Below are positions 400-62,118 of a DNA stretch of 64,000 nucleotides, piece after piece. The position numbers were made by a program, and so were the translations under genes. Positions within the stretch are counted from its first letter, which is position 1. Each line of letters begins with the position of its first letter. This DNA comes from an uncultured Candidatus Saccharibacteria bacterium (GTDB lineage: Bacteria > Patescibacteriota > Minisyncoccia > UBA6257 > UBA11618): contig CAYIII010000001.1 in NCBI GenBank assembly GCA_964363475.1, positions 2,170 to 66,169 on the forward strand. Reading direction: 5' to 3'. The notes beneath the pieces are model-generated. The model saw only the letters and a program-made list of their open reading frames with translations. It was not told the origin of the DNA and made no database searches.

Positions 400-625
400 A
401 CAAACCCCACCTTACATCCTTCATCACTTCACAAACAAAATATCAATTACCAATTTTCAATTTACAATCAATTTTCAATTATCAATTTTCAATAAAATCC
501 CAAATCCCAATGACCAATGTCCAACAAAATCCCAAAATCTCAAATCCCAATAACCAATTATCAATTGCCAATTTACAATCAATTTTCAATTACCAATTAT
601 CAATTATTGATAATTAGGTCTTTTG
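400..625. repeat. Satellite-like low-complexity region of degenerate 6-9 nt units (CAATTTT, CCAATTA, AAATCCCAA), containing about four copies of the AAATCCCAA motif
   Basis: Direct reading. The motif CAAATCCCAATGACCAA here matches the 14-nt units inserted in folD (1028-1058) and resembles the 17302-17411 segment. Confidence 0.6.
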
Positions 626-636
626 TTTTAGATATA

Positions 637-936
637 AACAACCACCCTCTTTCTCGACGAGGCCGTGGAGGCGAATAAGTTGGGGGGTGGCTGGTGTTTG
701 TTGAGAAAGGCGTCTCGGAAGCCGAGCGGGCATGGTACCAGCAGTCTTGTTATAATATTCTATTAACAAGACTGCTGGTGAGCGAGGCTGAGAGTCGAGT
801 GGTGATTTTCTCGCTGGAGAAAATCAACCACGTACTTTCGAGACAAACACCAGACAGGACCCCCCCTTCTTTTATATGAGCCGTAACACCTGCCTGCCGG
901 TAGGCAGGGGTTGAGGAGAGGAAGAGGGTGGTTGTT
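637..936. repeat. Structured repeat element, copy A. Its 5' end AACAACCACCCTCTTTCTC (637-655) pairs with its 3' end GAGGAAGAGGGTGGTTGTT (918-936) in a 19-bp helix. Candidate ncRNA or MITE-like structured repeat
   Basis: Nucleotides 643-677 are identical to 27327-27361 of copy B. The 3' block TATATGAGCCGTAACA...GGTTGAGGAGAGGAAG is conserved, and the terminal helix shows a compensatory pair change versus copy B. There are internal variable hairpins (cagcagtcttgtta...taacaagactgctg, cctgcc...ggcagg). Confidence 0.6.
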
Positions 937-17226: not shown

Positions 17227-17244
17227 TCAATTTTTAATTATATT

Positions 17245-17468
17245 GGAACTTGGTGCTTGAGATTTTATTAGGTTAATTAGAGTAATTAGAAATTAGAAAT
17301 TAACCTAATTAATCTAATAAAACCCCAAATCTCAATAACCAAATCCCAATAAAATCTTAAAATCACAAATCCCAACATTGGACCTTGGGGTTTGGGGCTT
17401 TGTTGGGATTTGGAACTTGGTGCTTGAGATTTTATTAGGTTAATTAGAGTAATTAGAAATTAGAAATT
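17245..17468. repeat. Complex intergenic repeat. Two identical 57-bp direct repeats (17245-17301, 17412-17468) flank a 110-bp segment rich in CAAATCCCAA / TTGGGATTTGG motifs. Each 57-mer has an internal inverted repeat
   Basis: Direct reading. ggaacttggtgcttgagattttattaggttaattagagtaattagaaattagaaatt occurs twice; 17262-17280 is complementary to 17303-17321; ccccaaa/tttgggg pairing is possible. Confidence 0.7.
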
Positions 17469-17525
17469 TTGTAAGGTGGACATTTATTTGACCAAAACGT
17501 CAAATTACCTTAAAATATCGGTTCA

Positions 17526-24328: not shown

Positions 24329-27223
24329 TTATTTTCTTATTCCCAGCCAAATTTTTGAGCCGTCTAAGTCAACCTCAATAAAATGCTCAACTTTTTCCGT
24401 TCTCTCAAAAATAATTTCTTCCGCGTTGATATCTTTTCTAAAACCCTTGTTGCTTTCTAAAACGCTTTGCAATTTTTTTGGCAAGTCGGCGTGCAAAATA
24501 ATTTTGTTTTGGGGGGAATATTCGGCATCGCGCCTTAATCCTTGAATCGCTCTCGCCAATTCCCTTACGGCGCCTTCATTTTTCAGTTCTTCGGTAATGT
24601 TAATATCCAGCTCAATCTCGTCATTAATTTTGGAATCAAAAATAATTTCTTTGACATTTATTTCATCGGCTAATATATGTAATAATTCTTCGTTATTTTT
24701 TAATTTTTCATTTTTAATTTTTAATTTCCTCAACGGCTGTCTTATCTTAATCCCCGCTTCCGCTCTTTTGGCCAAAGCCAAACTGGCCAACGTTCTGACA
24801 TCCGACATATCTTCAATTAATTTTTTACTTGCCCCTCGAAGCTTTAGCGAAGTGGGGTCAACCCTTGGCCATTCTTCCAAATGAACGGAAACGCCACCGC
24901 TTAAAGATTTATACAAAGCATCCGCGAAAAACGGGACGAATGGAGCGATTAGTTTGCTGATTTCCAGTAAAACATTTTGTAAGATAGGCAACGCCTCCGC
25001 GCGCTTGCGTGAACGGCGAATGTACCAATGAGACAAGTCGCTTACGAATAACTCTAAAATTTTAGCCGCATACCCTATTTCATATTTGTTAAGATTCTCT
25101 TCAACTTCTAAAATAGTTTCATTTAATCTGGAGAAAATCCACTTATCTAAAATATTACTTAACTGGAAATTAGTCCGCCAACTGGCGGATGGGACTTGGG
25201 GCTCATTTTTTGAATAGGTCTCAAAAAATACATATGAATTATAAAGCAACGAGATAAAACGCCTGAAGGCCTTGCTTAACTCCGCCTCATCAAACTTTTT
25301 GGGCTCTGCCGGAGGATTAACGGTATAGAAATACCACCTGATAACGTCTACTCCGTATTTATCAATCATCTCCCAAGGGTCAACGATATTATTTTTTGAT
25401 TTAGACATTTTCTGTCCATGTTTATCTAAAAGATGGCCAAGTGAAATAACATTTTTGTAAGGGGTGTCTTCATTTAATAAAACGCCAATGGCCAGCAATG
25501 TATAAAACCAGCCGCGAGTTTGGTCAATTGCTTCGCAAATATAATCCGCCGGATAACGGTTCGGATATTCTCCGCTCGCAAACGGCATGCCGCCGGAATC
25601 AAACCAAACATCCGCCACTTCTTTCACTCTTGTCATAGAGCCATTACACTTCGGACAAATTAATTTCACTTCATCAATATAAGGACGATGCAAATCAGCC
25701 GGCGCCTCACCGCCATGCTCTTTAAGTTCGTCTCTGCTGCCAATCACTAATTTTTCATCGCATTTTTCACACTCCCAAATAGGCAATGGCGTGCCCCAAT
25801 AACGCTCGCGAGAAATAGCCCAGTCCTTTACCCCTTGAAGCCACTCCCCGAAACGCCCGCTTTGAAGATGATGGGGAATCCAATTTATTTTCTCGTTGGC
25901 TTTTAACAAATCGCTTCTTAACTTACTCATCTCTATAAACCAAGAAAATCTGGGAAAGTAAATGAGGGCTCTGGAACAGCGCCAGCAAAAAGGATAGTCA
26001 TGTTCAATCGTGGTCTGGTAAAAAAGCAAATTTCTTTTTTGAAGGTCTTCTAATATATCTTTATCCGCTTCTTTAATATATTTGCCCGCGCCGGGCAATC
26101 CGTTTTTCATAATCCCCTGGTCATCAATAGTTACGGGAAAGTCGCTCATTTTGTTTCTCATTAAATTCAAGTCATCCTCGCCAAAAGAGGCAATATGAAT
26201 TAATCCGGTTCCATCTTCCGCGCTGACAAAATCAGCCTTCACCACTTCATGAGGACCGTTATTTTCATACAAGGACTCATATTTTAGGCCAATCATTTTT
26301 TTTCCGGAAAGTTTTTCTATGACCTCTATCTTAGTGTCCGAAGAAAATGGCGGCGCGTTAACAGCCCAAATATATTCGCCATTAATTTCATATTTTGTGT
26401 AAGTTAATTCCGGATTTACGGCAATAGCCAGATTTGCCGGCAAAGTCCACGGAGTGGTGGTCCATATTAATAAGTATTCGTTAACTTGGGATTTGGAACT
26501 TGGGATTTGGAACTTTATATATACTGACGGGTCCTTAACTTTCTTATACGCCCCCGGCTGTCCCAACTCATGGCTTGATAAAGATGTTTGGCAACGAGGG
26601 CACCACGGAACTACTTTATAAAACTTATTTAATAATCCCCTCTCGTCAATCTTTTTAAAAACGCCCCACAATTTTTCCAAATAATCGTTTTCGTAAGTTA
26701 TATACGCATTTTCAAAGTCCAACCAAAAACCGATTCTTTCAGTTAATTTTTCCCATTCATCCTTATATTTCCAGACGGATTCTTTGGCTTTTTTATTAAA
26801 TTCGGCAATGCCAAATTTTTCTATGTCCTGCTTGTTTTTAATTCCTAATTCTTTTTCAACTTCAATTTCCACGGGCAAGCCCTGCGTATCCCAACCGGCG
26901 CGACGGGGCGCATAATAACCTTGCATAGTTTTAAACCGTAAAATAATATCTTTAAAAGCACGGGCTAAGATATGATGAGTGCCGGGACGGCCATTGGCAG
27001 TCGGAGGACCTTCATAAAATATGAATTCTCTTTTCCCTTTTGATTGGCTTAAGGTTTTTGAAAAGATATTATTTTCTCGCCAAAAATCCAAAACTTTTTC
27101 TTCAATTTCTGGAAGATTAAACTGTTTTAAACCACGCAACATAAGTAAAATAATAAGCCAAAAACTGCTTTTTTTCAACGAAGGTTCGTTCATCAACAAC
27201 CATCCTCTATATAGCAACCCCAC
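24329..27223 (-). CDS. ileS: isoleucine--tRNA ligase
   Basis: 964 aa with the HIGH-class motif (PPTANGRPGTHH), KMSKS, and CP1 editing domain. Contains two in-frame repeat insertions (25165-25203 and 26484-26514). Confidence 0.9.
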   Translation of the reverse strand: MGLLYRGWLLMNEPSLKKSSFWLIILLMLRGLKQFNLPEIEEKVLDFWRENNIFSKTLSQSKGKREFIFYEGPPTANGRPGTHHILARAFKDIILRFKTMQGYYAPRRAGWDTQGLPVEIEVEKELGIKNKQDIEKFGIAEFNKKAKESVWKYKDEWEKLTERIGFWLDFENAYITYENDYLEKLWGVFKKIDERGLLNKFYKVVPWCPRCQTSLSSHELGQPGAYKKVKDPSVYIKFQIPSSKSQVNEYLLIWTTTPWTLPANLAIAVNPELTYTKYEINGEYIWAVNAPPFSSDTKIEVIEKLSGKKMIGLKYESLYENNGPHEVVKADFVSAEDGTGLIHIASFGEDDLNLMRNKMSDFPVTIDDQGIMKNGLPGAGKYIKEADKDILEDLQKRNLLFYQTTIEHDYPFCWRCSRALIYFPRFSWFIEMSKLRSDLLKANEKINWIPHHLQSGRFGEWLQGVKDWAISRERYWGTPLPIWECEKCDEKLVIGSRDELKEHGGEAPADLHRPYIDEVKLICPKCNGSMTRVKEVADVWFDSGGMPFASGEYPNRYPADYICEAIDQTRGWFYTLLAIGVLLNEDTPYKNVISLGHLLDKHGQKMSKSKNNIVDPWEMIDKYGVDVIRWYFYTVNPPAEPKKFDEAELSKAFRRFISLLYNSYVFFETYSKNEPQVPSASWRTNFQLSNILDKWIFSRLNETILEVEENLNKYEIGYAAKILELFVSDLSHWYIRRSRKRAEALPILQNVLLEISKLIAPFVPFFADALYKSLSGGVSVHLEEWPRVDPTSLKLRGASKKLIEDMSDVRTLASLALAKRAEAGIKIRQPLRKLKIKNEKLKNNEELLHILADEINVKEIIFDSKINDEIELDINITEELKNEGAVRELARAIQGLRRDAEYSPQNKIILHADLPKKLQSVLESNKGFRKDINAEEIIFERTEKVEHFIEVDLDGSKIWLGIRK
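25165..25203. repeat. Intragenic palindromic repeat element #1 in ileS (GGAAATTAG-TCCGCCAACTGGCGGA-TGGGACTTGG), encoding EPQVPSASWRTNFQLS
   Basis: Direct reading. The near-palindromic core TCCGCCAACTGGCGGA is shared with copies at 40281, 46589 and 36841. Confidence 0.8.
26484..26514. repeat. Intragenic tandem 14-nt repeat (AACTTGGGATTTGG x2) in ileS, encoding KFQIPSSKSQV
   Basis: Direct reading. Same TTGGGATTTGG motif as the folD insertion and the intergenic satellite regions. Confidence 0.7.
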
Positions 27224-27320
27224 CCCATATCCTTCATCAATACCGTCCTCGTTCAGAATAAAACTGAACTCGGATTAAATATTGATTCAGGATACGAGGT
27301 GGGGCTGTATACTAAACAAA

Positions 27321-27540
27321 AACCACCACCCTCTTTCTCGACGAGGCCGTGGAGGCGAATATATAAATTACGAAGCTTGGAGTAAGGCTATAAGCAAAAA
27401 AGCGCTGATAGAATCCCAAGTCCCGATACTAACAGTATCGGGACGGGTTGAGTTCGCTTTTTTGCTATATAGCACACGACAAGCGAGTCGCAATTTATAT
27501 GAGCCGTAACAGGTTGAGGAGAGGAAGGGGGTGGTGGTTT
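27321..27540. repeat. Structured repeat element, copy B. 5' AACCACCACCCTCTTTCTC (27321-27339) pairs with 3' GAGGAAGGGGGTGGTGGTT (27522-27540). Candidate ncRNA or MITE-like structured repeat
   Basis: Shares a 35-nt identical 5' block and a conserved 3' block with copy A (637-936). Internal hairpin cccgatact-aac-agtatcggg. Lies between divergent ileS and the Cas4-like gene. Confidence 0.6.
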
Positions 27541-27611
27541 ATATTGGGGTTGGAGAAAACAAGTGGTCTTTGGTTATAGATAAAAAAATTATTTTTCGTT
27601 AAAATAAAGCA

Positions 27612-28439
27612 ATGTCCGAATATTATACTTCCAGAAGAACCAAAAATCTTTACGATCCGAAATCAGCTTATCCCTTTAAATTAAGCCGCTCCAAAATAGA
27701 GCTGTTTTTGGCATGTCCTCATTGTTTCTATCTAGACCGCCGTCTGGGCGTGGGTCAGCCACCCGGCTTTCCTTTTAGTTTAAATTCGGCAGTAGACACT
27801 TTATTAAAAAAAGAATTTGACATTCACCGCGCCGCCCAATCAACTCACCCGCTGGTCAAATATTATAAAATTGACGCCATCCCGTTTAGCCATCCGGAAA
27901 TAAATAAATGGCGGGAAAATTTTGTCGGCATTCAGTATCACCATCAACCAACTAATTTTATAATCTCCGGCGCAATTGACGATCTCTGGATTAATGCGCA
28001 GGGCGAACTAATTGTCGTTGATTATAAATCCACCAGCAAAAACGAGGTCATCACCAACATTGATAAAGAATGGCAAGGCGGCTATAAACGCCAAATGGAA
28101 ATTTATCAATGGCTTCTGCGTCAGAATGGACACAAGGTCTCCAGCACCGGTTATTTTGTGTATTGCAATGGCCGCACCGATAAAGAGGCCTTTGACGGCA
28201 AGCTAGAATTTGACATAACGCTCATACCTTATGACGGAAAAGACGGTTGGATTGAAAAAGAAATTTTTAATGCCCACAAATGCCTTAACGATGAGAAAAT
28301 TCCGCCGTCTTCCGCCAGTTGCGATTTTTGCGCTTATGTGGATGCCGTCAAAGAAGTCACGGACGAAAAAAAGAAGACCAAACCTTCAAAGAAAAAAGCG
28401 GGAGAAGCGGGTCAGGGTTCGCTTATCGGCATTTTCTAA
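27612..28439 (+). CDS. Cas4-like PD-(D/E)XK nuclease (RecB-family nuclease domain with a 4-Cys cluster), stand-alone
   Basis: N-terminal CPHC, PD-(D/E)XK-like D...DDLW...VVDYKS, C-terminal C...CDFC cluster, and a Lys-rich tail. No CRISPR array or cas genes in the window. Confidence 0.55.
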   Translation: MSEYYTSRRTKNLYDPKSAYPFKLSRSKIELFLACPHCFYLDRRLGVGQPPGFPFSLNSAVDTLLKKEFDIHRAAQSTHPLVKYYKIDAIPFSHPEINKWRENFVGIQYHHQPTNFIISGAIDDLWINAQGELIVVDYKSTSKNEVITNIDKEWQGGYKRQMEIYQWLLRQNGHKVSSTGYFVYCNGRTDKEAFDGKLEFDITLIPYDGKDGWIEKEIFNAHKCLNDEKIPPSSASCDFCAYVDAVKEVTDEKKKTKPSKKKAGEAGQGSLIGIF

Positions 28440-28463: not shown

Positions 28464-28907
28464 ATGGACACAAACATTACTAACAAAAAAGCGTACTTTA
28501 ACTACGAAATCCTGGAGACCTACGAAGCGGGAATTGAGTTAAAAGGATTTGAAGTTAAGGCCATCAAAACCGGCAAAGCGAGCATAGTCGGTTCTTTTGT
28601 GATTGTTAAAAATAATGAAGCATGGTTATTAAACGCCGACATTCCTCCTTATCAGCCGGCTAACACTCCTCCGGACTACGACCCAAAACGCACCCGCCGC
28701 TTATTATTAAAAAAAGAAGAAATAAAAGAGTTGATTGGGAAAACCCACGAAAACGGCTTGACAATAGTGCCATTAAAATTGTACAATAAAAACGGAAAGA
28801 TTAAGATTGAAATTGGTATCGGACGGGGGAAAAAGAAAACGGATAAGCGTGAAACCATTAAAAAAAGGGAGTGGTCAAGGCTTCGACGGAACATTGAAAC
28901 CAGATAA
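28464..28907 (+). CDS. smpB: SsrA-binding protein SmpB
   Basis: 147 aa, conserved YFNYEILETYEAGIELKG..VKAIK, basic C-terminal tail. Confidence 0.9.
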   Translation: MDTNITNKKAYFNYEILETYEAGIELKGFEVKAIKTGKASIVGSFVIVKNNEAWLLNADIPPYQPANTPPDYDPKRTRRLLLKKEEIKELIGKTHENGLTIVPLKLYNKNGKIKIEIGIGRGKKKTDKRETIKKREWSRLRRNIETR

Positions 28908-29209
28908 GCAAGTAAGGTTGCAGGCCCTTTAAAAACTGCGCAAGATTAACTGCAAACACATTTAATCGACAACCCGCGTTGGCATACGCTTAATGCGGCA
29001 CCGGCGGCTTATGCCTAATAAAGCCATAACCGGTGTAATAATCTTAGGCTCTGTTTCGAAAAACTGATGTTTCGAAATGAAAATTTAGTCAGTAAAATTT
29101 TTCAGTTTTTGCCAAGTTTTAAGCTGAAAAATTTAAATTAACTTGGATAAACTTGTAGAAAGTTTGGCGGACATGCTTTCGGACGGGAGTTCAATTCTCC
29201 CCACTTCCA
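28867..29209 (+). ncRNA. ssrA: tmRNA (SsrA), standard one-piece; its 5' end overlaps the last 41 nt of smpB
   Basis: 5' GGGAGUGGUCAAGGCUUCGACGGAACAUUGAAACC matches the tmRNA 5' consensus (UUCGACGG). 3' CUUUCGGACGGGAGUUCAAUUCUCCC CACUUCC A gives a T-arm plus a 7-bp acceptor stem with the G3.U pair. Tag-like ORF with terminal ...AYA and UAA stops at 28964-29021. CCA not encoded. Confidence 0.85.
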
Positions 29210-29265
29210 CAAAAAATAAATTTTGACTTTTTATCTTTTATAAGCTATCCTTACCATAAACTTTC

Positions 29266-40011: not shown

Positions 40012-41111
40012 CGCTCACTGCCCTTTCCGGTAATTGCCACGACATCGCCGGGCCCAGCCAAACTAACAGCTTTTTTAATAGCTTCTTTTCTGTCCAATAT
40101 TTTTTGAGCCCGAGGACAACCCGCGGCTATTTCATTAATAATGTCTTCCAGTTCTTCATTATATGAATCTTCATCCGTCAAGATGATTTCATCGCAATAT
40201 TGCCCGGCAATTTTACCCATTTCCGGACGCTTCCATTTATCTCTCCCCCCACCGGCCGCGCCTAATACACATATTAATTTGGAAATTGGTCCGCCAACTG
40301 GCGGATGGGAATTGGGATTTTTTTCTCTAAGGGCCTCATAAACTTTACGCAAAGAGTCCGGCGTATGAGCATAATCCAAAACCACGGCAAATGGTTCTTT
40401 TTTTAAAAATTCCATTCTTCCGGAAATTCCGGAGAACTCGCCCACGGCTTCTTTAATAATATCGCGCGCAATGCCTCGCGATTCCGCGAAAGCGACGGCG
40501 GCGCCGATATTATATTTATTAAAATCGCCAATTAAATTGGAAAACAAATCGCTTTTTTCATAAAGAATAATTTTTCCTCCTCCAACGGCATCTATGAAAT
40601 CTTTTGAGCTAGCATCGTCTTTATTAATTATAAATAATTTTGAGAATCCACTGCCCGCATACCTAAAAAAATCTAATTTGGCTTTTTTATAATTATCAAA
40701 CGAACCATGGGCTTCAATGTGTTCTGGAGACAAATTAGTAAAAATAACAGCATCCCACTTGATAAAACGGTGGCGACTTTGTGAAACCCCTTGAGAAGTT
40801 ACTTCTATTAGAGCGTAATCACATTTACCGACAACCGCTTTCTTCAAAAATCTTTGCAAGAAAAATCTTCCGGGCATTGTCATGGAGGACTCACCATTAC
40901 GCAAAGAAGAACTTACGGCTACTTTCTTTCCCGCTTTTTCTAAAATAAAAGCCGTAAGCTCTAAAACGGTGGACTTTCCTTTTGTGCCCGTAACACCTAA
41001 AACAAAAATGTTCCTTGAGGGAAAATCGCAGAATAAAGCGGCAAAAAAAGACCATAACCAGTGATAGATAAAAACCAGCCAAGAAAAACGATAAAATATC
41101 TTTCTAATCAT
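39942..41111 (-). CDS. Mur ligase family protein (MurE/MurF-like UDP-N-acetylmuramoyl peptide ligase)
   Basis: P-loop VLGVTGTKGKSTV, Mur ligase middle and C domains. In-frame palindromic repeat at 40281-40320 encoding KNPNSHPPVGGPISKL. Confidence 0.6.
   Translation of the reverse strand: MIRKIFYRFSWLVFIYHWLWSFFAALFCDFPSRNIFVLGVTGTKGKSTVLELTAFILEKAGKKVAVSSSLRNGESSMTMPGRFFLQRFLKKAVVGKCDYALIEVTSQGVSQSRHRFIKWDAVIFTNLSPEHIEAHGSFDNYKKAKLDFFRYAGSGFSKLFIINKDDASSKDFIDAVGGGKIILYEKSDLFSNLIGDFNKYNIGAAVAFAESRGIARDIIKEAVGEFSGISGRMEFLKKEPFAVVLDYAHTPDSLRKVYEALREKNPNSHPPVGGPISKLICVLGAAGGGRDKWKRPEMGKIAGQYCDEIILTDEDSYNEELEDIINEIAAGCPRAQKILDRKEAIKKAVSLAGPGDVVAITGKGSERWIHKKNNQKIPWSDKQVVLSVI
40281..40320. repeat. 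Intragenic palindromic repeat element #2 (GGAAATTGG-TCCGCCAACTGGCGGA-TGGGAATTGGGATTT)
   Basis: Direct reading; shares the core and flanks with #1, #3, #4 and ends in the TTGGGATTT motif. Confidence 0.8.
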
Positions 41112-43828: not shown

Positions 43829-46372
43829 CTAGGGAAGAGGGATGCCACTTTCTATCTCTGAGAGAGAGCCGTCAATATATTCATAATTATAAAAACTGTC
43901 TATCACCCAGTAAGGAAGCGCCCTCACATAACTCGGCAGTCCTCCTTGTTCCTTTTCATATAACTCCGCAAATTCTCCTACTAATCTTTCGGTTTCTTCT
44001 ACTAAGAGACGTCTCATAAATTCACATCTTTTTTCTTCATCAGCTATATACTCACTGTCACCCACCTTAGAAAGCAATGACTTAGCTTGATGCTCATCAA
44101 TAGGAAAACCATATTCTCTTAAGAGAAATCCGAAAGCTCTTGCCGTTAATAAAGGGTCCTCTAATAAGAGGTCGCTTCCCGTTCTTCTGCTTTTCTTATA
44201 AAAAAGGTTTAACTCTTCACAAGGTATACAATACACCATAGAAACATCCGGGATATTGACGCCTTTCTCGGCCAACCACCTATCTCTAAGCTCAACAAGA
44301 GTACCGATATTGCCAACATTACCAACAATAGTAACGGGGGCGGAAGTAAGGGCCCTACCAAAAACACCTAGCCCCTTCCCCAAAGATGTCCACCAGCTTG
44401 TCGGGGGTTTTGGCGCAGTAACCGGAACTGTTGTAAGAGGTTTAACTACAATCCCCCTTGGTCCTGACTCTAAAGCTTTAAGTGGCTTGATATCGGGAAT
44501 ATCGGAAATTTGAGCCGGTTTAGAATAAACTTGTTTCCTTCGTATTCTAATGTCTGGTAGTTCTTGCCTTGCATCTACTACAAATAAGTCCGGAACCGTT
44601 GTTGGTCGAGACGGAAGACTAGGAAGCGCTTGTTTGGCATGCAAATCTAGCACCTTGCCCCTTGCATGTCTATATGCTCTATAAATATGTTCATCAACAA
44701 TCGATGGTGATAGCTTATTCCCTTGATTCCATTCATAGATTCTAGATTGAACAACTTCTTGTTGTGGAAGCGATAAATCATACATATATTTTTCAAATAA
44801 TTCTACTAACCTGCCCTCTTCCTTTCGAATGACAGGGAGTTGTTGAGTCTTCCTGGCGGCATTGACATAATGCGCTGGTCTAACATCTATTTGCGAAAAG
44901 GGCTTTCCCCCTCTCGCGTGCTCTTCAACTATTCGTCTTTGCGAGTCAGTAAAATATGATGGATGTTTTTCGACAGCTTCTAAAATCTTAATTTTATCTT
45001 TCGTACCTCCTTTTAAGTCGACACCTGCTTTTGTATCTACGCTATTAAAATATTTACTAATAACAAGCTGCCCTCCCCTAGGAGAAATTTCACGCATGGT
45101 CTCTGGTAAATGCCCCTCATCAATTAATTTATTTAAAATAGTTGTATAATCTAATTTATCTCCATTTTTCCAAGTTAATCTTAGTTCTGATACTCTCCGC
45201 TCAATTATAGTGATTTTTCCTTCATTAAACGCCTCAAGAATTAATCTCTTTGTTTCTTCTTCTTCTTTTAAAATATCAGGTAGCGTTGCAATCCTGGCCT
45301 GGATCGCATCCCAGCTTTCACTAACGACTTTTGGTTTTATCGATTCATTTTTAGCAATCTCTATAAAAGTATGCTTGCTGCCGTCTTCGCGACGGGTAAG
45401 ATAAGCTCTAGCAATATCTCTCATTCTGGAAGTAAAATACTGGGGATATTCATCAATGACGCTTAATAAGCGAGCTTCACTTTCTAAGTCAGAAAAAAGC
45501 GTAGCCGTTTTTGAAAGAGCGTCATTAAGAGAATTTCGAACGGATCTTACTGATAAATTAGTTCCGTATAACTTATTATACTCCAATGTTATTTCTGCTA
45601 CCGCGCCTCTACCAACAAAACCCTGATTAGTGTAAATTTCCATTATCCTATATTGTTGTTCGGTAAAAACTCCAGGATATTTGAGCAATAAATCCCCCAG
45701 AGGAGATCTAACTCCTATTGCTTTTTTGGAATCGTGTATATGTACAAGAATACCAGCGTAAGCATCCATTACTTCATCCACAGTCCAATCTAGTTCTTGA
45801 GCAATTTTAGTAAATAAATCACCTTGTTGATTTTCTGGCTTTAAAAGCGATTCTATAAGCTTTTTTTCGTCATGATTTTTCGGCAAAGAATTGGCATAAT
45901 CTTGAAAAGCTTTTTTAGAAAAAGGATGCTGTGAGGCAATCTCTGTTGGGACAATTAATGATATTTTATTTCCAGTTTTAATATTTTCGATGTAAAAATC
46001 GCTACCGGGTCCAGCTTGATATAATGGTAAATCCGTTCTATCGAATCTTATTCGAAATCCTAACTCCTCTATTTCCTTATAGTGATCACTGTAAACATCC
46101 AATATAGCTTCCGCTTTCGCATGGGACCTACTAAATGTTTCAGGTTCATACGACGAAACCTTATCCAAATTCAGCCACTTTTCTCCCGTTACTACATCTT
46201 CTTCGCCACCATATTTATTGTAAACCTTTTCTAAATCTGTACGAAATGCTTCCCACAATTCTTCTAACGATAGGGGAGCGGCCCAAGTTGCAGAAAATAC
46301 CACAAAAAATAGACAGTAAAATAAGGTTAACGATAGAAAGCCACGCATAGGTAAATCATAACATAATAGCAA
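43829..46372 (-). CDS. large hypothetical secreted or membrane-anchored protein (847 aa)
   Basis: N-terminal hydrophobic segment, Pro-rich linker (about aa 600-650), no recognisable catalytic motif. Confidence 0.45.
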   Translation of the reverse strand: MLLCYDLPMRGFLSLTLFYCLFFVVFSATWAAPLSLEELWEAFRTDLEKVYNKYGGEEDVVTGEKWLNLDKVSSYEPETFSRSHAKAEAILDVYSDHYKEIEELGFRIRFDRTDLPLYQAGPGSDFYIENIKTGNKISLIVPTEIASQHPFSKKAFQDYANSLPKNHDEKKLIESLLKPENQQGDLFTKIAQELDWTVDEVMDAYAGILVHIHDSKKAIGVRSPLGDLLLKYPGVFTEQQYRIMEIYTNQGFVGRGAVAEITLEYNKLYGTNLSVRSVRNSLNDALSKTATLFSDLESEARLLSVIDEYPQYFTSRMRDIARAYLTRREDGSKHTFIEIAKNESIKPKVVSESWDAIQARIATLPDILKEEEETKRLILEAFNEGKITIIERRVSELRLTWKNGDKLDYTTILNKLIDEGHLPETMREISPRGGQLVISKYFNSVDTKAGVDLKGGTKDKIKILEAVEKHPSYFTDSQRRIVEEHARGGKPFSQIDVRPAHYVNAARKTQQLPVIRKEEGRLVELFEKYMYDLSLPQQEVVQSRIYEWNQGNKLSPSIVDEHIYRAYRHARGKVLDLHAKQALPSLPSRPTTVPDLFVVDARQELPDIRIRRKQVYSKPAQISDIPDIKPLKALESGPRGIVVKPLTTVPVTAPKPPTSWWTSLGKGLGVFGRALTSAPVTIVGNVGNIGTLVELRDRWLAEKGVNIPDVSMVYCIPCEELNLFYKKSRRTGSDLLLEDPLLTARAFGFLLREYGFPIDEHQAKSLLSKVGDSEYIADEEKRCEFMRRLLVEETERLVGEFAELYEKEQGGLPSYVRALPYWVIDSFYNYEYIDGSLSEIESGIPLP

Positions 46373-47138
46373 AATCAGTTAGAGCGGTTTCGTAGTCCAA
46401 TTTTCCCGATTTAACGGCAATGTCATAATCGGCCATTAATTTTTTATTTTCAGGACTTGTCGTGAAAGCCAAAACATTAAATATCTTAGCCGGGTCTTCT
46501 TCTTTTATTAATGTCTCCAAAATGGGTATTTTGCTTAAAAAATTACCGCGAGATAATTTATTAACTAAATTAAAAAAATCGTACCCTAATTGGAAATTGG
46601 TTCGCCAGTTGGCGGATGGAAATTGGAAATTATACAAAGCCAATTTGTCTAGCTCCGTAACAAGTCCCCAGCAATCCCCCCTATATTGCCTTAATAAATT
46701 ATTTAAAAAATCCAAAGGCAATTTTAGGTCTCTTTTTTCCAATTCTTTTTGCGCAAACTTTTCCCAGTCCTTATTTTGTAAAGTATCAAACTCTTGAAAA
46801 ATAACCGGTTTCTTCAAGAGAAAATCAAATTCCTTATTGGGCTTGTCATCAGAGACCAGCAATAAAATAAGCTCCTTTGTTGATAAGTTCTTCTTGAAAA
46901 TTTCTTTTAATTCCGATTGGAAGGGATTGGCAACTACTGCCATTCTGAAAGAATCAAACAAAGAAACCGCCGACACAAATTCCTTCAAACGAATCAAATC
47001 GTCGCCCTCCTCTAAATCAAACTTATCAACGCTTAAATGAGAATGTTTTAATTGATACTGCTTAACAATCTCCTTCTGCTTATGAAATCTGAAATATGAT
47101 TCCGGGCCGTAGAGAAAAATAATCATTGAATCTGGCAA
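46356..47138 (-). CDS. holA: DNA polymerase III subunit delta-like protein
   Basis: N-terminal IIFLYGPESYF (typical HolA start). Contains the in-frame palindromic repeat at 46589-46630. Confidence 0.55.
   Translation of the reverse strand: MPDSMIIFLYGPESYFRFHKQKEIVKQYQLKHSHLSVDKFDLEEGDDLIRLKEFVSAVSLFDSFRMAVVANPFQSELKEIFKKNLSTKELILLLVSDDKPNKEFDFLLKKPVIFQEFDTLQNKDWEKFAQKELEKRDLKLPLDFLNNLLRQYRGDCWGLVTELDKLALYNFQFPSANWRTNFQLGYDFFNLVNKLSRGNFLSKIPILETLIKEEDPAKIFNVLAFTTSPENKKLMADYDIAVKSGKLDYETALTDFAIML
46589..46630. repeat. Intragenic palindromic repeat element #3 (ATTGGAAATTGG-TTCGCCAGTTGGCGGA-TGGAAATTGGAAATT), encoding NFQFPSANWRTNFQL
   Basis: Direct reading; same frame and peptide as copy #1 in ileS. 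Confidence 0.8.
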
Positions 47139-49040: not shown

Positions 49041-50276
49041 TTATAGTGGTTTTAATTCCCCCCAATTACAGCCGATTTTAACATTAACTTTAAGAGGGAC
49101 GCTTAAACGATAAATCGATTCCATTATATTTTTAATATCATCAACGACATCTTTTACTTTATCATCCTCAATTTCAAACAACAACTCGTCATGAATAGAC
49201 AGCAAAAGACGGTATTTATTGGTTTGAATCATCGCCATTTTAATAATATCCGCGGCCAAGCTTTGAATCGGCATATTAATTGCCGCCCTCTCCGCTTCAA
49301 TGGGCAGCCATCTTTTCCTTCCGTTTAAATTTTCCACATATCCCTTTTGACGCAGCTCATTTTTAACTTTTTCCTGCCAATCGCGAACTTGGGCAAAATC
49401 GTTAAAATATTCCGCAATAAATTTTTCCGCTTCTTGACGAGACAAACCGCTAGCTCGAGCAAAAGCCGAAGGACCCATACCGTATACAACGCCAAAATTT
49501 AAGGTTTTAGCTAATTGTCTCATATCTAAAGTTACTTTTTCTAACGGCGTGTTAAAAACTTGACTGGCTGTTAATTTGTGAATATCTAAATCATTTTGAA
49601 AGGCCTCAATCATTTTTTTGTCGTTAGCCGCCGTCGCCAAAACTCTTAATTCTATTTGAGAATAATCAAAAGAGACAAAAACACAGCCAGCTCTGGCGAC
49701 AAAAGCCGGCCTAATAACATCGGGAACATTTTGTAAATTGGGATTTTTAGAGCTTAATCTTCCGGTAGCGGTTCCTGTTTGCAAAAAAGTGGTGCGCGCC
49801 ATCTCTCCCAAGCCCAATAAGGGCTCTACGTAAGTGGATTGGGCTTTAAAAATTTCGCGATAATTTAAGATTAAAGAAATGACGGGGTGCTTATCTTTAA
49901 TCAATTCCAATTGTCCAGCGGCCGTGGACTTCAGCCGAGGAACGATTTTTAACTTATCAAATAAAACGGCCGCCATCTGTTTAGGCGAATTAACATTAAA
50001 CTCTCCCGTATGTTGATATATTTTCTTTATCAAGTCCTCAATTTGTTGAGATTGTCTTTTCCTTAAATTTTTTAAAAAATTAGAGTCCAAACCGACGCCT
50101 CTCTCGTGCATATCTTTCAAAACGGGCATTAGCGGCAATTCTATTTCTTTTAAAATTTTATCCAATCCAAACTGAGCTAATCTTTCCTCGGCCTCTTTAA
50201 GACGAAGACCCGCGTAAACTTGCGGCTCATCGGGATTTAAAAGCCAATTAATTATGTCTCTTTCGGTTTCCGTCAT
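49041..50276 (-). CDS. polA: DNA polymerase I, polymerase domain only (family A)
   Basis: Motif A (DYSQIELR), motif B (RQLAKTLNFGVVYG), motif C (HDELLFE). No 3'-5' exonuclease domain. Start overlaps the upstream 5'-3' exonuclease ORF by 4 nt. Confidence 0.8.
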   Translation of the reverse strand: MTETERDIINWLLNPDEPQVYAGLRLKEAEERLAQFGLDKILKEIELPLMPVLKDMHERGVGLDSNFLKNLRKRQSQQIEDLIKKIYQHTGEFNVNSPKQMAAVLFDKLKIVPRLKSTAAGQLELIKDKHPVISLILNYREIFKAQSTYVEPLLGLGEMARTTFLQTGTATGRLSSKNPNLQNVPDVIRPAFVARAGCVFVSFDYSQIELRVLATAANDKKMIEAFQNDLDIHKLTASQVFNTPLEKVTLDMRQLAKTLNFGVVYGMGPSAFARASGLSRQEAEKFIAEYFNDFAQVRDWQEKVKNELRQKGYVENLNGRKRWLPIEAERAAINMPIQSLAADIIKMAMIQTNKYRLLLSIHDELLFEIEDDKVKDVVDDIKNIMESIYRLSVPLKVNVKIGCNWGELKPL

Positions 50277-51157
50277 AATTTGTCTATTAAACTATTAAAT
50301 CCAAGTTTTTGAAAGTGCGATATTAAAGAATTTTTATCATATGGACGCAATTTGAAATCATTTAATGATTTTATTTCTAACGGCACGTCTTTTTTAATCG
50401 TGGCTAATTCCTTGGAAAGAAGGGCAATTTCTTTTTGGGCTTCCAGTTTAACGCCGATTTTGTCGGAAATTTCCCATAAATTATTAAAAATATTCTCTAA
50501 ACTGCCGTATTTTTGTAATAATGGTATGGCCGTCTTATAACCAACGCCTTTTACTCCGGGAATATTATCCGAAGTGTCGCCCACCAGCCCCTTTAAGTCC
50601 GGTAATTGTTTGGGGGTTAAGCCATAACGATTTTTCACGGCAACTTCATTGTATATTTCCACATCGCTTGTCCCCTTTTTAATAATCTCCACGACAATCT
50701 TGTCATTATCCACTAACTGCAAGTTATCCAAGTCCCCGGAAAGAATGGATGTGATTAAGTCCGGTTCGTTTTTAAATTTTTCGGCTAAACTTCCGATTAA
50801 ATCATCGGCCTCATAACCGGCTTTCTCTATTACTTTAACGCCAAATTGTTCAAATAATTCCCTGGCTTTATTGAATTGCGATATTAATTCGGGAGCCGGC
50901 TTAGGGCGTTGTATTTTGTATTCTTTAAAGACCTCTGCCCTAAAAGTTTTTTCCGGCCTGTCAAAAGTCGCGATAACATAATCCCGTTTCTTTTCCTTAA
51001 AGATATTAAGGATAAGGCGCGCTAATCCGTAAATGGAGCCGACGGATTCTCCTGCTGGCGTGGTTAGCGGCGGCAAGGCGTAGAAAAAACGATAGATTAG
51101 GGCGTGGGAATCAATCAATAATAATGTTTCTTTCATTTTTATCTTTTCCATGCTCAA
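50273..51157 (-). CDS. 5'-3' exonuclease (Pol I N-terminal / FEN-like domain) as a separate ORF
   Basis: LLLIDSHALIYRFFYA start, acidic metal-binding residues, HhH region (GVKGVGYKTA). Confidence 0.8.
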   Translation of the reverse strand: MSMEKIKMKETLLLIDSHALIYRFFYALPPLTTPAGESVGSIYGLARLILNIFKEKKRDYVIATFDRPEKTFRAEVFKEYKIQRPKPAPELISQFNKARELFEQFGVKVIEKAGYEADDLIGSLAEKFKNEPDLITSILSGDLDNLQLVDNDKIVVEIIKKGTSDVEIYNEVAVKNRYGLTPKQLPDLKGLVGDTSDNIPGVKGVGYKTAIPLLQKYGSLENIFNNLWEISDKIGVKLEAQKEIALLSKELATIKKDVPLEIKSLNDFKLRPYDKNSLISHFQKLGFNSLIDKL

Positions 51158-51542
51158 ATTCTATCCACAAAGCGGATTTTGGCAATAATTCCTTGATTTT
51201 GTCCGCCCATTCTATTAAAAGAATATTTTTGGGATTATCTAGTATCTCCTTAAATCCTAGCGCCAGCAATTCTTCTGGATTTTTTATGCGATAGCAATCT
51301 ATGTGATAAGCCGAGGCGTAATTTTGTCCGCCAATCGGCGAATTTAATTTATAATTTTTAATTATCGTAAAGGTGGGACTTGTAATTCTGCCTTTCACCT
51401 TCAATGCCCTTAAAAAAAATTGGGAAAAGGTAGTTTTTCCAGCGCCCAAATCGCCAATTAAAGCAAAAATTCTGCAAGGCAACCGAGATGCTAGGTCCTC
51501 GGCTACTTCTCTAGTGTTAAAAATATCTTTTGAATTGGTCAT
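51111..51542 (-). CDS. tsaE: tRNA threonylcarbamoyladenosine biosynthesis protein TsaE
   Basis: P-loop GDLGAGKTTF; about 143 aa. Confidence 0.75.
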   Translation of the reverse strand: MTNSKDIFNTREVAEDLASRLPCRIFALIGDLGAGKTTFSQFFLRALKVKGRITSPTFTIIKNYKLNSPIGGQNYASAYHIDCYRIKNPEELLALGFKEILDNPKNILLIEWADKIKELLPKSALWIEFEHGKDKNERNIIID

Positions 51543-56604: not shown

Positions 56605-58953
56605 ATGTCTAGAAAAATATTAATCTACGGATTTTTAGGAATTTGCGCTCTAGCATTGGGAGGATTTTTTTATATTGAATTATTATTTAGAAACCTTCCT
56701 AATCCAACCCTATTTGACCAACGGCAAGTAGCGCAATCAACTAAAATTTATGATAAAACGGGCGAAGTTTTGCTCTATGAACTTTATGGAGAGCAAAAAA
56801 GGACGGTTATCCCGTTTGAGGAAATTCCGGAAATAATCAAAAATGCCTCTTTAATTATTGAGGATAAGGAATTTTATAATCATCCCGCCTTTGATTGGAA
56901 ATCCATTATAAGAGCAGCAATTATAAATTTAACCAGCGGACGCATTGTCCAAGGAGGGTCAACTATAACGCAACAATTAGCCAAAAACGCCTTCTTAAGT
57001 TCGGAAAGGACAATTAACAGAAAAATTAAGGAATTGCTCTTGGCTTTTCGTTTAGAAAAAAAATACACCAAAGACCAAATTCTAAATTTATATTTAAATC
57101 AGATTCCTTATGGAACGAATGCTTATGGCATAGAAGCGGCCGCGCAGACCTATTTTCAAAAAAAGGCCAAGAATTTAAATTTAGCCGAAGCCGCCTTATT
57201 GGCCAGTTTACCCAAAGCTCCCAGTTACTATTCTCCATGGGGCGAACATAAAGAAGAACTTACCGGACGCAAAAACTATATTATAGACCAAATGGCCGCG
57301 GCTAAGATGATTAGCGAAGAAGAAGCCGCCGAAGCTAAAAAAATTGAAATAGAATTTGCCCCGCAGACCATTAGCATCAACGCCCCTCATTTTGTAATAA
57401 CGATTCAGGATTATTTAAACAGCCATTATGGAGAGGATTTTGTCAGAAGCGCCGGATTAAAAGTTACAACAACTCTTGATTGGAAAATGCAACAATTAGC
57501 GGAAAAAGTGGTCGCCGAAGGAGCCGAAAATAATGAAAAATTATATAAAGGGAAAAATGCCGCTTTGGTCGCTCAAGACGCGAAAACAGGACAAATATTA
57601 GCCCTGGTTGGCTCCAGAAATTATTTTGATGAAGAAGTGGACGGCAACTTTAATGTTGCCACCCAAGGACTAAGACAGCCCGGTTCCGCCATTAAACCCA
57701 TCGCTTATTTAACGGCATTTATTAAAGGATATACTCCGGACTCCATAGTTTTTGATTTAGAAACAGAGTTTAATACCACGGACGAAGAAGAAAAAAGTTA
57801 TAAACCGCAAAATTATGACGAACAATTTCGCGGTCCCGTGACTATGAGGAACGGATTGGCGCAGTCAATAAACGTTCCGTCGGTAAAAACCCTTTATTTG
57901 GCGGGATTAGATGAGACATTAAAGAACGCTAAAAAAATGGGTATAACAACACTAACCGAAAGAAGCCGCTATGGTCTTTCGTTGGCGCTGGGAGGCGGCG
58001 AAGTCAAACTTATTGATTTAGTGGGCGCTTATTCGGTATTCAGCCAAGACGGCATAAAACATAAACAGGTATTTATTTTAAAAATAGAAGATAGTCAAGG
58101 TGAAATCATTGAAGAATATAAAGACCAATCGGAACAGATTATAGAACCGCAATATGTAAGATTAATAAATGATATTTTAACGGATATAGAGGCCCGCTCT
58201 TTATTATTTAGTAATAGCTTGAGTTTAACGGTTTTTCCAAATCAAGAAGTGGCTTTAAAAACCGGCACGACAAACGATTACAGAGACGCTTGGGCGATGG
58301 GCTATACTCCGTCCTTAACTGTGGGCGTGTGGGCCGGAAACAACGATAATCAACCAATGGAAAAAAGGGGCGGTAGTATTCTGGCGGCCGTTCCTATCTG
58401 GAATGCGTTTTTAAAAGAAGCGCTTAAAGAAACGGCGCTAGAAACATTTCCCAGACCGGAAGTGATTTTGGTAGATAAGCCGATATTAAAAGGAGAATAT
58501 ATAATAAATAATGAAATTCACGATATTCTCTATTATATTGATAAAAATAATCCCCAAGGACAATCGCCGTCCGACCCAAAAAAGGACTCTCAATTTGAGA
58601 ATTGGGAGAAAGTAGTAAGGGACTGGGCACAAATTAATTTACCGGCTTTATCTAATAATAATCCGAATAATCAATCTGTTATTGAGTTTTTGAATTTACA
58701 AAACGGCCAAACCATAACTAATCCTCTTAATATCAGTATTAAAATAAAAAGTTCTCAAGATATTACTAAATTAGAAACATATTTCAACGATAAACTAATA
58801 GACCAAAAATTCCTGAACTTGGGAAAAGAATTTGATTATCAAATGAATTTTGACTTAACTTTGGAACTACAAAACAAATTCACAATTAAAACATTTGATG
58901 TTTTAAATAATATTATAACTAAAGAAATAATTTTATATTCTAATGGGCATTAG
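56605..58953 (+). CDS. penicillin-binding protein 1A (bifunctional transglycosylase/transpeptidase)
   Basis: GT51 motifs (EDKEFYNHPAFDW, GGSTITQQLAKN), transpeptidase SAIKP, SIN, KTGT. Confidence 0.88.
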   Translation: MSRKILIYGFLGICALALGGFFYIELLFRNLPNPTLFDQRQVAQSTKIYDKTGEVLLYELYGEQKRTVIPFEEIPEIIKNASLIIEDKEFYNHPAFDWKSIIRAAIINLTSGRIVQGGSTITQQLAKNAFLSSERTINRKIKELLLAFRLEKKYTKDQILNLYLNQIPYGTNAYGIEAAAQTYFQKKAKNLNLAEAALLASLPKAPSYYSPWGEHKEELTGRKNYIIDQMAAAKMISEEEAAEAKKIEIEFAPQTISINAPHFVITIQDYLNSHYGEDFVRSAGLKVTTTLDWKMQQLAEKVVAEGAENNEKLYKGKNAALVAQDAKTGQILALVGSRNYFDEEVDGNFNVATQGLRQPGSAIKPIAYLTAFIKGYTPDSIVFDLETEFNTTDEEEKSYKPQNYDEQFRGPVTMRNGLAQSINVPSVKTLYLAGLDETLKNAKKMGITTLTERSRYGLSLALGGGEVKLIDLVGAYSVFSQDGIKHKQVFILKIEDSQGEIIEEYKDQSEQIIEPQYVRLINDILTDIEARSLLFSNSLSLTVFPNQEVALKTGTTNDYRDAWAMGYTPSLTVGVWAGNNDNQPMEKRGGSILAAVPIWNAFLKEALKETALETFPRPEVILVDKPILKGEYIINNEIHDILYYIDKNNPQGQSPSDPKKDSQFENWEKVVRDWAQINLPALSNNNPNNQSVIEFLNLQNGQTITNPLNISIKIKSSQDITKLETYFNDKLIDQKFLNLGKEFDYQMNFDLTLELQNKFTIKTFDVLNNIITKEIILYSNGH

Positions 58954-60045: not shown

Positions 60046-60221
60046 ATTATTTATTTAATATATTTATTAGTAGTTAATAGTAGCACTTTTAATTTTTGTT
60101 GATAACTCATTTTTATTGCATTATTCCTCATATTTTTCATTTAATAAATTGTTTATAAAATCTTAAGTAATTCTGATATTATTGTTTATAATCTTTAATC
60201 GTCAATCTTTTCCACATTTAA
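60046..60221. promoter_or_regulatory. AT-rich dnaA-dnaN intergenic region; candidate DNA-unwinding element or secondary oriC module
   Basis: 176 bp of very high A+T with a DnaA-box-like TGTTGATAA at 60097-60105. Confidence 0.4.
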
Positions 60222-61580: not shown

Positions 61581-61635
61581 AGTTTCATTCTAGTGCGTGA
61601 CTGGTCTCGGTCAATAGTGACATAAGTTCAATATG

Positions 61636-61655
61636 TGTTGATAAGGTGTGGATAA
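61636..61655. promoter_or_regulatory. two adjacent DnaA boxes (TGTTGATAA, TGTGGATAA) between divergent dnaA and rpmH
   Basis: Direct reading; TGTGGATAA is the reverse complement of the consensus TTATCCACA. Confidence 0.6.
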
Positions 61656-61672
61656 CCTGCTAGAATATCCAA

Positions 61673-61807
61673 ATGAGTAGGACCTATCAGCCAAAAAAGA
61701 AAAAAAGAAGAAGGACTCACGGATTTCTAAAAAGAATGAGAATGGTAGGCGGCAGAAGGGCGTTAAGAAAGCGTCGTCAGAAGGGAAGACATAAGCTTAC
61801 CGTATAA
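61673..61807 (+). CDS. rpmH: 50S ribosomal protein L34
   Basis: 44-aa basic [47 protein letters not shown]; below the ORF-track size cut-off. Confidence 0.9.
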
Positions 61808-62118
61808 TGTTGCCTAAAAAGAGCCGCTTGCCCATACAAGAATTGTTGGATAAGAGAGGAAAGACCCATCGCGGCGATTTTTTTACCATAAAGGTTTTTT
61901 TTAATAACTTTTCTTACAGCAGGTTTGGAATTATTATTAGCAAGAAAGTAGTCAATTCTGCCGTTCAAAGGAATAAAATAAAACGAATGCTGTTTTCGGC
62001 CCTGGAGTTGATTGTGGATAAATGGCAAAAGGCGGATTATTTAGTAGTGCTCAATAATTGGAAAGAATTAAATCAAAAACAAGTTAATGATCAATTTATT
62101 TCATACATTTTTCACTAA
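61807..62118 (+). CDS. rnpA: ribonuclease P protein component
   Basis: Start overlaps the rpmH stop (ATAATG). Basic RNase P protein-like sequence with the RNR-type motif NKIKRMLF. Confidence 0.75.
   Translation: MLPKKSRLPIQELLDKRGKTHRGDFFTIKVFFNNFSYSRFGIIISKKVVNSAVQRNKIKRMLFSALELIVDKWQKADYLVVLNNWKELNQKQVNDQFISYIFH

Follow-up and report, generated by a model that had tools for sequence, protein, structure and literature searches.

Results

A composite hairpin between ileS and a PD-(D/E)XK nuclease gene

We analysed a stretch of 64,000 nucleotides from a Patescibacteria genome (contig CAYIII010000001.1; hereafter the window, to whose positions coordinates refer unless another locus is named) and followed up a structured repeat, copy B, that occupies the intergenic region between ileS and a divergent gene for a PD-(D/E)XK nuclease. 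The ileS open reading frame (ORF) begins on the - strand with an ATG at 27142, which is in frame and gives a typical IleRS N-terminus; the nuclease gene begins with an ATG at 27612 on the + strand. A first-pass annotation of this DNA had described copy B as the second copy of an element found beside folD and had read it, in the sense of ileS, as a very long terminator or attenuator-like hairpin in the ileS 5' leader.

On the + strand 27320-27540 folds into a single long hairpin, almost unbranched, with a minimum free energy of -122 kcal/mol, compared with a mean of -65 kcal/mol for shuffled sequences (z -12.4; 0 of 200 shuffles folded as well), and the - strand reaches -101.7 kcal/mol (z -10.9). 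The fold is far beyond chance and copies occur at other loci (see below), which bears out the description of a structured, repeated element. The closing helix (P1), annotated as 19 bp at 27321-27339 and 27522-27540, is present with its two G.U pairs (U27336.G27524 and U27332.G27528), but its extent was one base off: it comprises 20 bp, 27320-27339 paired with 27521-27540. The tip hairpin cccgatact-aac-agtatcggg (27422-27442, extending to 11 bp over 27420-27444), the TTTTTGTTT directly after the helix on the - strand (reverse complement of 27314-22), AGAGGGTGGT (reverse complement of 27325-34) and a 75-aa ORF are all present as annotated. The parts of copy B are the following.

27320..27540, + strand: copy B composite hairpin (minimum free energy against shuffles, shared ends, covariation of P1 and the core helices, independent assembly)
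27340-27360, + strand: conserved 5' core GACGAGGCCGTGGAGGCGAAT
27362-27495, + strand: type-B interior module
27420..27444, + strand: apical hairpin gtcccgatact-aac-agtatcgggac, a variable tip
27496-27521, + strand: conserved 3' core TATATGAGCCGTAACA + GGTTGAGGAG
27282..27509, + strand: spurious 75-aa ORF with a TTG start (no Pfam match, frame not kept)

At the tip position two copies from other loci (L036 and L044; loci outside the window are numbered with the prefix L) have other hairpins. The 75-aa ORF had already been called spurious; it has no Pfam match and other copies carry stop codons in its frame, and a protein-coding reading of the element was rejected because the ORF is not conserved.

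Copies A and B have a common base and unrelated interiors

The claim that copy B is a second copy of the folD-side element (copy A) holds for the basal part of the hairpin and fails for the interiors, which are unrelated in sequence. Common to both are only the basal ~90 nt, that is the closing helix and a core with many G-A mismatches. The 5' 42 nt are 98% identical (AAAC[A/C]ACCACCCTCTTTCTC-GACGAGGCCGTGGAGGCGAATA), and on the 3' side the copies have in common TTTATATGAGCCGTAACA plus GGTTGAGGAGAGGAAGRGGGTGGT; of the three stretches common to both, the last reads GGTTGAGGAGAGGAAG[A/G]GGGTGGT. The interiors measure ~195 nt in copy A and ~135 nt in copy B, and each is itself a strong hairpin. 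Copy A is built as follows.

636..936, + strand: copy A (fold, shared ends, type-A covariation)
637-655 with 918-936, + strand: P1
656-676, + strand: 5' core
678-872, + strand: type-A interior, a three-way-junction module
873-888, + strand: 3' core, first part
889-908, + strand: inserted 20-nt mini-palindrome CCTGCCTGCCGGTAGGCAGG, between GTAACA and GGTTGAGG
909-918, + strand: 3' core, second part

The final bases of copy A P1 are overlapped by the folD stop codon (935-937).

A mosaic family with a narrow distribution

We scanned a metagenome collection with the exact 3'-core pattern and 185,579 species genomes with a 21-nt 5'-core pattern. The first scan led to the identification of 7 further loci, all from the Hainich H51 groundwater metagenome to which the window also belongs, and none elsewhere in the collection. 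The second gave 2 true loci, both in one related metagenome-assembled genome (MAG; CAZATK01); its other 8 matches are chance occurrences in G+C-rich coding DNA. Viral contigs, phage records and plasmid records gave no true matches to the element patterns, and a phage or plasmid origin was rejected: a 17-mer gave 22 viral matches, each of them a chance occurrence within coding sequence. No further divergent cores were found by fuzzy-pattern and BLAST scans of ~180 kb of Patescibacteria loci.

The family is hosted by a groundwater Patescibacteria genome (Parcubacteria-type) with about ten or more copies. Nine or more copies other than copy B adjoin folD, pth, glmS, groES, smc, dnaE and other genes, never ileS, and the loci outside the window have only the element in common with it. 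Relative to the gene on their 3' side, 5 of 11 copies are co-oriented and 6 convergent. The core houses either type-A or type-B interiors. Type A also stands free, inverted, just upstream of type-B elements (L036, L044); in L045 an 'M' hairpin replaces most of type B, and L040 has the 5' core and lacks the 3' core or half. The 20-nt mini-palindrome sits in the 3' arm (3' of GTAACA) in copy A, L045 and L048 and in the 5' arm (after GCGAAT) in L036. Over 315 nt copy A and L048 agree to 99%, and their flanks are unrelated, which indicates a recent duplication. As a whole the family has many copies, some of them truncated, and a mosaic build, and it is unlinked to any particular gene.

Short-read contigs of several replicate assemblies (L002-L004, L042-L047 and L028-L031) end in or beside hairpin repeats, and four independent assemblies of an 82%-identical relative all break 200-240 nt upstream of the PD-(D/E)XK gene. 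Hairpin repeats evidently fragment the MAGs of this lineage.

A tandem pair of modules was also seen in two species, at L056 13007-13490 (from trmD to a sigma-70 gene) and at L051 1387-1716 (from folD to tpiA). An 'X' hairpin (...GGCTCGGCTCGCCGCTTTTTGTTTTT...AACAAAAAGACC.TGCCGGCGCGGCCTCCGCCA...) is followed there by a diverged type-A three-way-junction module, and the pair runs in the sense of the flanking genes. The X module is found in L028-L031 too, and the pair has no Rfam match.

Gain and loss between close relatives

At the folD locus the relative L049 is syntenic with the window (VTT-MFS-Sua5-PLD-protease-glyA-folD-secreted protein), and the distance from folD to the next gene is ~19 nt in L049 against ~535 nt in the window. 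The ~535 nt consist of an M motif, a CAAT-heptamer array, a 'P' module and copy A, and the TGTGTTATAAT promoter of the gene after folD is kept on the far side of the block. Besides copy A, the block comprises one entry.

400..635, strand unassigned: rest of the inserted block (M motif 403-426, - strand; CAAT/CCCAAT heptamer low-complexity array 427-616; P module 617-638)

A second case lies at the dnaE / rpmF-nusB junction of the related MAG, where ~1.1 kb holding a type-B element, a type-A module and two small ORFs has no counterpart in the Hainich genome; the NusB proteins of the two are 94% identical, and the flanks align on both sides. In relatives of the PD-(D/E)XK gene (72-88% protein identity) the upstream regions are 29-41 nt long, without the element. 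Element blocks are gained or lost between close relatives. For copy B itself no empty site was found, the relatives not being syntenic at ileS.

Pairing is maintained and one strand is preferred

We aligned the basal helices of five full copies with the interiors cut out. Over 34 basal pairs, 94.5% of the cells are standard pairs and 12 of the 34 pairs have changed on both sides; no shuffle out of 500 attains these values, and pairing falls to ~50% when the partner columns are slid. A C-G pair is replaced by U-A between copies A and L048, which are otherwise 99% identical, L036 carries a 2-bp insertion in both arms, L044 has a wholly different closing helix that is still complementary, and in the GGCC/GGUU helix G.U becomes G-C or A-U. 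Type A has 17 compensated pairs over four sequences, one of which is the diverged L051 copy of another species, and its unpaired motifs, a GCAYGGU bulge and an CUCGCUGG loop, are kept across species. Type B shows few changes, its copies being closely similar.

The conserved core is non-palindromic, with GA in both arms on one strand. This core-sense strand forms four tandem G-A/A-G steps and a GGA/GUA loop where its complement has C-U/U-C mismatches, and in each of the five full copies it folds 18-27 kcal/mol better. Free-standing type-A modules and the M hairpin each prefer their own sense strand, even when inverted beside a core element. The window is essentially one replichore (dnaA and dnaN at 58.9-61.6 kb), and replication-strand mutation bias cannot explain the asymmetry because inverted modules on the same replichore keep their own preference. 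Pair changes on both sides together with strand asymmetry therefore indicate that a folded single strand matters, and we infer that selection, or a copying mechanism, acts on such a strand as RNA or single-stranded DNA (ssDNA).

The replication genes lie in a group at 58933-62785 (dnaN, dnaA and a yidC gene, PF02096), with a short ORF at 61807-62118 upstream of yidC; the 226-nt gap at 61581-61806 probably contains the chromosomal replication origin.

Small palindromes inside genes

Mini-palindromes of 15-21 nt are nested inside the larger palindromes and also lie in frame inside genes, where the composite element itself was never seen; the latter was found in intergenic DNA only. Within four long ORFs of the window we observed an in-frame repeat of ~42 nt, a palindrome TCCGCCARYTGGCGGA flanked by short repeats of CCCAAT/TTGGAA type.

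25163-25204: inside ileS, peptide EPQVPSASWRTNFQ in IleRS
40279-40320: inside a Mur ligase ORF, peptide KNPNSHPPVGGPISK
46590-46631 (inside ORF 46356-47138) and 51316-51357 (inside tsaE): peptides NFQFPSANWRTNFQ and KNYKLNSPIGGQNYA

The repeat is read in two frames and adds ~14 aa. The in-frame TCCGCC...GGCGGA palindromes of ileS, the Mur ligase gene, tsaE and ORF 46356 are related to the mini-palindrome inside copy A, and the short-repeat motif that flanks the palindromes within ORFs is also that of the intergenic heptamer arrays. The folD gene of L049 (10001-10822) contains three in-frame palindromic insertions that are not in the FolD of the window or of L051. One of them, TCCTGCCTGCCGGTAGGCATG (SCLPVGM), matches the mini-palindrome inside copy A at 18 of 18 positions; the other two are both CCGCCAGCTGGCGGA (PPAGG). 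The presence of such palindromes in coding genes points to a palindrome-insertion process that would act on DNA.

Promoters, flanking modules and neighbouring genes

By consensus prediction, each of the genes flanking copy B has a promoter between the element and its start codon.

27178..27150, - strand: predicted ileS promoter TTGAAA-17-TATTAT (10 of 12 consensus matches)
27577..27605, + strand: predicted promoter of the PD-(D/E)XK nuclease gene TAGATA-17-TAAAAT, 6 nt before the ATG at 27612

The predicted ileS promoter is the best site in the region; the end of its -10 box is separated from the ATG by 7 nt. When all 62 gene starts of the window are compared, strong -10-like hexamers are concentrated 6 and 7 nt ahead of the start codon (10 and 6 genes) over a background of ~2 genes per offset elsewhere, which suggests that many mRNAs of the host are leaderless. 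Besides ileS and the nuclease gene, examples are gdh at 35443 and the secreted-protein gene beside folD. Because the -10 boxes lie 6-7 nt before the starts and the predicted promoters stand between the element and the genes, copy B is predicted to be outside both flanking mRNAs.

Two further modules flank copy B.

27192..27312, - strand: decayed neighbouring element, an M hairpin with a remnant of a closing-helix 3' arm
27545..27590, + strand: P module GGGGTTGGAGAAAACAAGTGGTCTTTGGTTATAGATAAAAA

In the decayed element the motif TGATGAAGGATATGGGGTGGGGTT (27216-27239) has its partner at 27283-27304 and the 3'-arm remnant is at 27192-27208; compared with the L045 copy, the 3' core is deleted. It folds at -61 kcal/mol on the - strand and -43.5 kcal/mol on the + strand. 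The P module recurs after copies L042 and L047 and ahead of copy A (617-638), and at 27545..27590 it shares bases with the -35-like hexamer in the promoter predicted for the downstream gene. Low-complexity heptamer arrays (CAATTTT/CCCAAAT-type) fill two long intergenic regions of the window, 427-616 and 17227-17525; the second includes two identical 59-nt direct repeats, 17243-17301 and 17410-17468.

Downstream of copy B, smpB is followed directly by a tmRNA gene (28867-29212, 143.6 bits; both within 28464-29212), which confirms that this block is housekeeping. Elsewhere in the window DNA polymerase I appears split into a 5'-3' exonuclease ORF (50273-51157) and a family-A polymerase ORF (49041-50276), and no 3'-5' exonuclease domain was detected in the two ORFs (49041-51157).

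Discussion

Copy B as a member of a hairpin repeat family

Copy B is, in our judgement, probably a member of a lineage-restricted, non-coding and modular family of nested hairpin or palindromic repeats that is likely selfish and non-autonomous. We favour this because the family has ten or so copies or more, mosaic and truncated members, near-identical copies at unlinked sites and gains and losses between relatives, and because its distribution is very narrow, it is non-coding and its smaller nested palindromes also occur inside genes.

A full element is made up of four layers. The outermost, the closing helix, can vary in sequence provided that pairing is kept. Beneath it lies the sequence-conserved, non-palindromic core, an irregular helix with the four tandem G-A/A-G steps and the GGA/GUA loop. 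The third and fourth layers are one interchangeable interior hairpin module (type A, type B or M) and a variable tip. Such elements would be selfish DNA that spreads through recombination or through transposition in trans, and the selected step would involve the folded core-sense strand, either as an ssDNA intermediate recognised at the G-A core or as a transcript. The copy at the ileS locus would be a passenger between two divergent leaderless promoters, with no specific role in ileS expression. Where copies are read through, the hairpin may incidentally block or terminate transcription and protect 3' ends.

Several observations weigh against this reading. No transposase, integrase, reverse transcriptase or HUH protein was found among the 59 window ORFs scanned with Pfam, and no target-site duplication could be defined at any of the filled and empty junctions compared. 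The conserved part is a subterminal, asymmetric core and not the extreme termini, which is unlike classical miniature inverted-repeat transposable elements (MITEs) of the terminal-inverted-repeat type and closer to a protein-binding RNA. The breadth of the family has been gauged from cores sampled in two related genomes only, with exact patterns that would miss diverged members such as the GACGAGACCGTGAAGG variant of L044. Finally, a -10-like TA-rich hexamer precedes the helix base by 5-8 nt in all six copies with a complete 5' end (TATACT, 6 nt before 27320, in copy B), which is compatible with independent transcription.

The main rival explanation, which we hold doubtful, is that the elements are genes for self-contained hairpin RNAs, with a promoter at the helix base and an end at the U-rich stretch after the helix; the G-A-rich core would be a protein-binding platform and the interchangeable interiors functional cargo. 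The strong sense-strand bias, the conserved tandem G-A motifs, the extensive compensatory change and the conservation of the unpaired type-A motifs across species all speak for it, as do the hexamers before the helix base in a genome whose -10 boxes lie 6-7 nt before start points, the UUUAUAUU / UUGUU after the helix and an orientation independent of the neighbouring genes. However, there are truncated and core-deleted copies, near-identical unlinked copies and presence or absence between close relatives; the hexamers have no consistent -35 partner, and TA-rich hexamers are frequent by chance in AT-rich flanks. The narrow distribution also argues against RNA genes, as does the insertion of mini-palindromes at differing positions of the core region and inside ORFs. 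That the family is a new, Patescibacteria-specific class of self-transcribed hairpin RNAs, in which a protein-bound tandem G-A scaffold carries interchangeable cargo hairpins, we regard as unlikely. If true, it would be a modular system at the RNA level, such as a family of scaffold or guide RNAs, or an element whose propagation passes through a hairpin intermediate of RNA or ssDNA, and the in-frame mini-palindromes of essential genes would be seeded by that machinery too.

It is quite improbable that the hairpin has been co-opted as a bidirectional terminator or insulator and a stabiliser of mRNA 3' ends between tightly packed genes. Both strands fold strongly (-100 to -160 kcal/mol), A-rich sequence lies 5' and U-rich sequence 3' of the closing helix on both strands (AAAC...GUUU), and on the - strand of copy B the stem is followed by UUUUUGUUU. 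Moreover, in 6 of 11 cases a convergent gene has its stop codon directly against the element, and at copy A the folD stop codon overlaps the helix. Yet copy B lies between divergent promoters, with no upstream gene on the - strand whose transcript could end there; at these junctions the genes of relatives are only 19-41 nt apart; a terminator consensus scan called neither copy A nor copy B; and in the convergent cases the strand bias favours the strand antisense to the abutting gene. A terminator or insulator role is possible where a copy lies against a stop codon, as copy A does at folD, and would serve no purpose at copy B.

We rate as highly improbable the reading first proposed, in which copy B would belong to the ileS 5' leader and act there as a regulatory hairpin of the attenuator or terminator type. 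The element is upstream of ileS and, on the ileS strand, the long hairpin is followed by UUUUUGUUU. But the element stands upstream of the predicted ileS promoter, and by prediction the mRNA has no leader. The best-folding strand is the + strand, antisense to ileS, by ~20 kcal/mol, because its G.U pairs and tandem G-A mismatches become C-A and U-C on the ileS strand. No other copy is linked to ileS, and the family behaves as an insertion at other loci. The first-pass annotation had weighed a T-box leader, noting a short resemblance (AGAGGGUGGU), and had set it aside; the covariance-model scan agrees, with no Rfam T-box match in the whole window at the gathering threshold and none, to T-box RF00230 or to any other Rfam family, in 27100-27700 on both strands even at E<=10. 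No match to the 14-nt T-box sequence AGGGUGGNACCGCG within 3 mismatches was found in or near the element, and three matches elsewhere in the window are at chance level. Copy B is thus like a T-box or other aminoacyl-tRNA synthetase attenuator in its position upstream of ileS and in that short resemblance, and unlike one in having no covariance-model match and no T-box sequence, in its strand preference, in lying outside the predicted transcript and in having copies at unrelated genes. By promoter prediction, strand preference and Rfam, an ileS riboswitch or attenuator is not supported. A regulatory leader of the PD-(D/E)XK gene was also rejected, this gene being conserved across Parcubacteria with 29-41 nt upstream and without the element.

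An artefactual origin of the hairpin, as an inverted-repeat chimera made during assembly or amplification, has a negligible probability: several assemblies do break within or beside the element, but copy B is not an assembly chimera because an independent replicate assembly from the same aquifer sample (L001) is base-identical over the whole ileS / PD-(D/E)XK intergenic region and crosses both flanks, the arms are imperfect with conserved mismatches, and related copies occur in a MAG of another study.

Comparison with known systems

Rfam 15 gave no family for the window copies and the related modules, with only chance-level hits of microRNA type at gathering and permissive thresholds. Several identities were rejected individually. 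The 3' core has a likeness to group II intron domain V (GAGCCGUA...GGUU), but a 4-bp base with a 6-nt loop does not fit its geometry, only some copies have the inserted hairpin, which L036 carries in the opposite arm, and Rfam shows no intron match. A hammerhead or kink-turn (GGCGAA/UGAGCC) was discarded by inspection, the structure being a two-way junction with tandem G-A pairs and no 3-nt bulge. For a retron or a diversity-generating retroelement, no reverse transcriptase lies nearby among the scanned window ORFs.

Among repeats, the closest known kinds are Rickettsia palindromic elements (RPEs), BOX elements, enterobacterial repetitive intergenic consensus (ERIC) sequences and MITE-type elements, although these comparisons, like those with Correia and repetitive extragenic palindromic (REP) elements, express likeness of kind and not tested homology. 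They draw in addition on a survey of REP elements (PMC3733652).

The family is set apart from the RPE, BOX, ERIC and MITE kinds by co-varying ends with a conserved subterminal G-A core, by nested hairpins and by strong strand asymmetry. RPEs comprise several non-coding families of palindromic repeat, hosted by a small and reduced genome, with no recognisable transposase and a patchy distribution between relatives. The repeats described here are likewise non-coding, palindromic and patchy, and palindromes of 15-45 nt are in frame in ileS, the Mur ligase gene, tsaE and a relative's folD; unlike RPEs, the 220-300 nt composites are intergenic only, nested and mosaic, with a conserved subterminal core of G-A mismatches. 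BOX elements of pneumococcus and ERIC sequences (also intergenic repeat units) of enterobacteria resemble them in being intergenic and modular, with end modules that are conserved and interior modules that vary or are inserted, in forming long stable hairpins with compensatory change (ERIC), and in having incidental effects on neighbouring transcripts, as the elements here may; the module sequences are unrelated, and the elements here are larger, contain hairpins within hairpins and have a Patescibacteria host. As in MITEs (such as the Correia elements of Neisseria), we found multiple copies, no autonomy, no coding capacity, intergenic positions, inverted-repeat ends and presence/absence polymorphism. 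The elements differ from MITEs in that no target-site duplication was found, and in arms that co-vary or are replaced (L044), where MITEs have a conserved transposase-binding part; no parent insertion sequence is known for them, and none was found among the scanned window ORFs.

The strand-specific folded single strands, the conserved mismatched or extrahelical features and the variable terminal structure recall REP sequences and bacterial interspersed mosaic elements, REPINs mobilised by REP-associated tyrosine transposases (RAYTs) and integron attC sites, and mosaic combinations are a further likeness to REP. Compared with REP/RAYT systems the elements are 5-10 times larger (220-300 nt against palindromes of 20-40 nt) and have no consistent GTAG/CGTC tag, the mini-palindrome carrying GGTAGG in some copies and GGCAGG in L036. 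In contrast to REPIN-RAYT systems and integrons, the window holds no RAYT, Y1/HUH transposase or integrase gene and no cassette array.

Implications

Genomes of Patescibacteria are generally portrayed as small, streamlined and poor in repeated or mobile DNA. Our full-text literature searches turned up no account of repeats of a palindromic, MITE-like or RPE-like kind from Patescibacteria or the Candidate Phyla Radiation. Here is a Patescibacteria genome with about ten or more large nested hairpin repeats, and with related mini-palindromes in frame in essential genes, as in Rickettsia. Many contigs end inside such repeats, and both completeness and synteny are biased as a result in MAGs of this group. 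For annotation, the message is that the element upstream of ileS should not be labelled an ileS riboswitch or attenuator. Strict pairing combined with a G-A core on one strand suggests that a protein recognises the folded single strand, and finding it would explain how these elements spread without a visible transposase.

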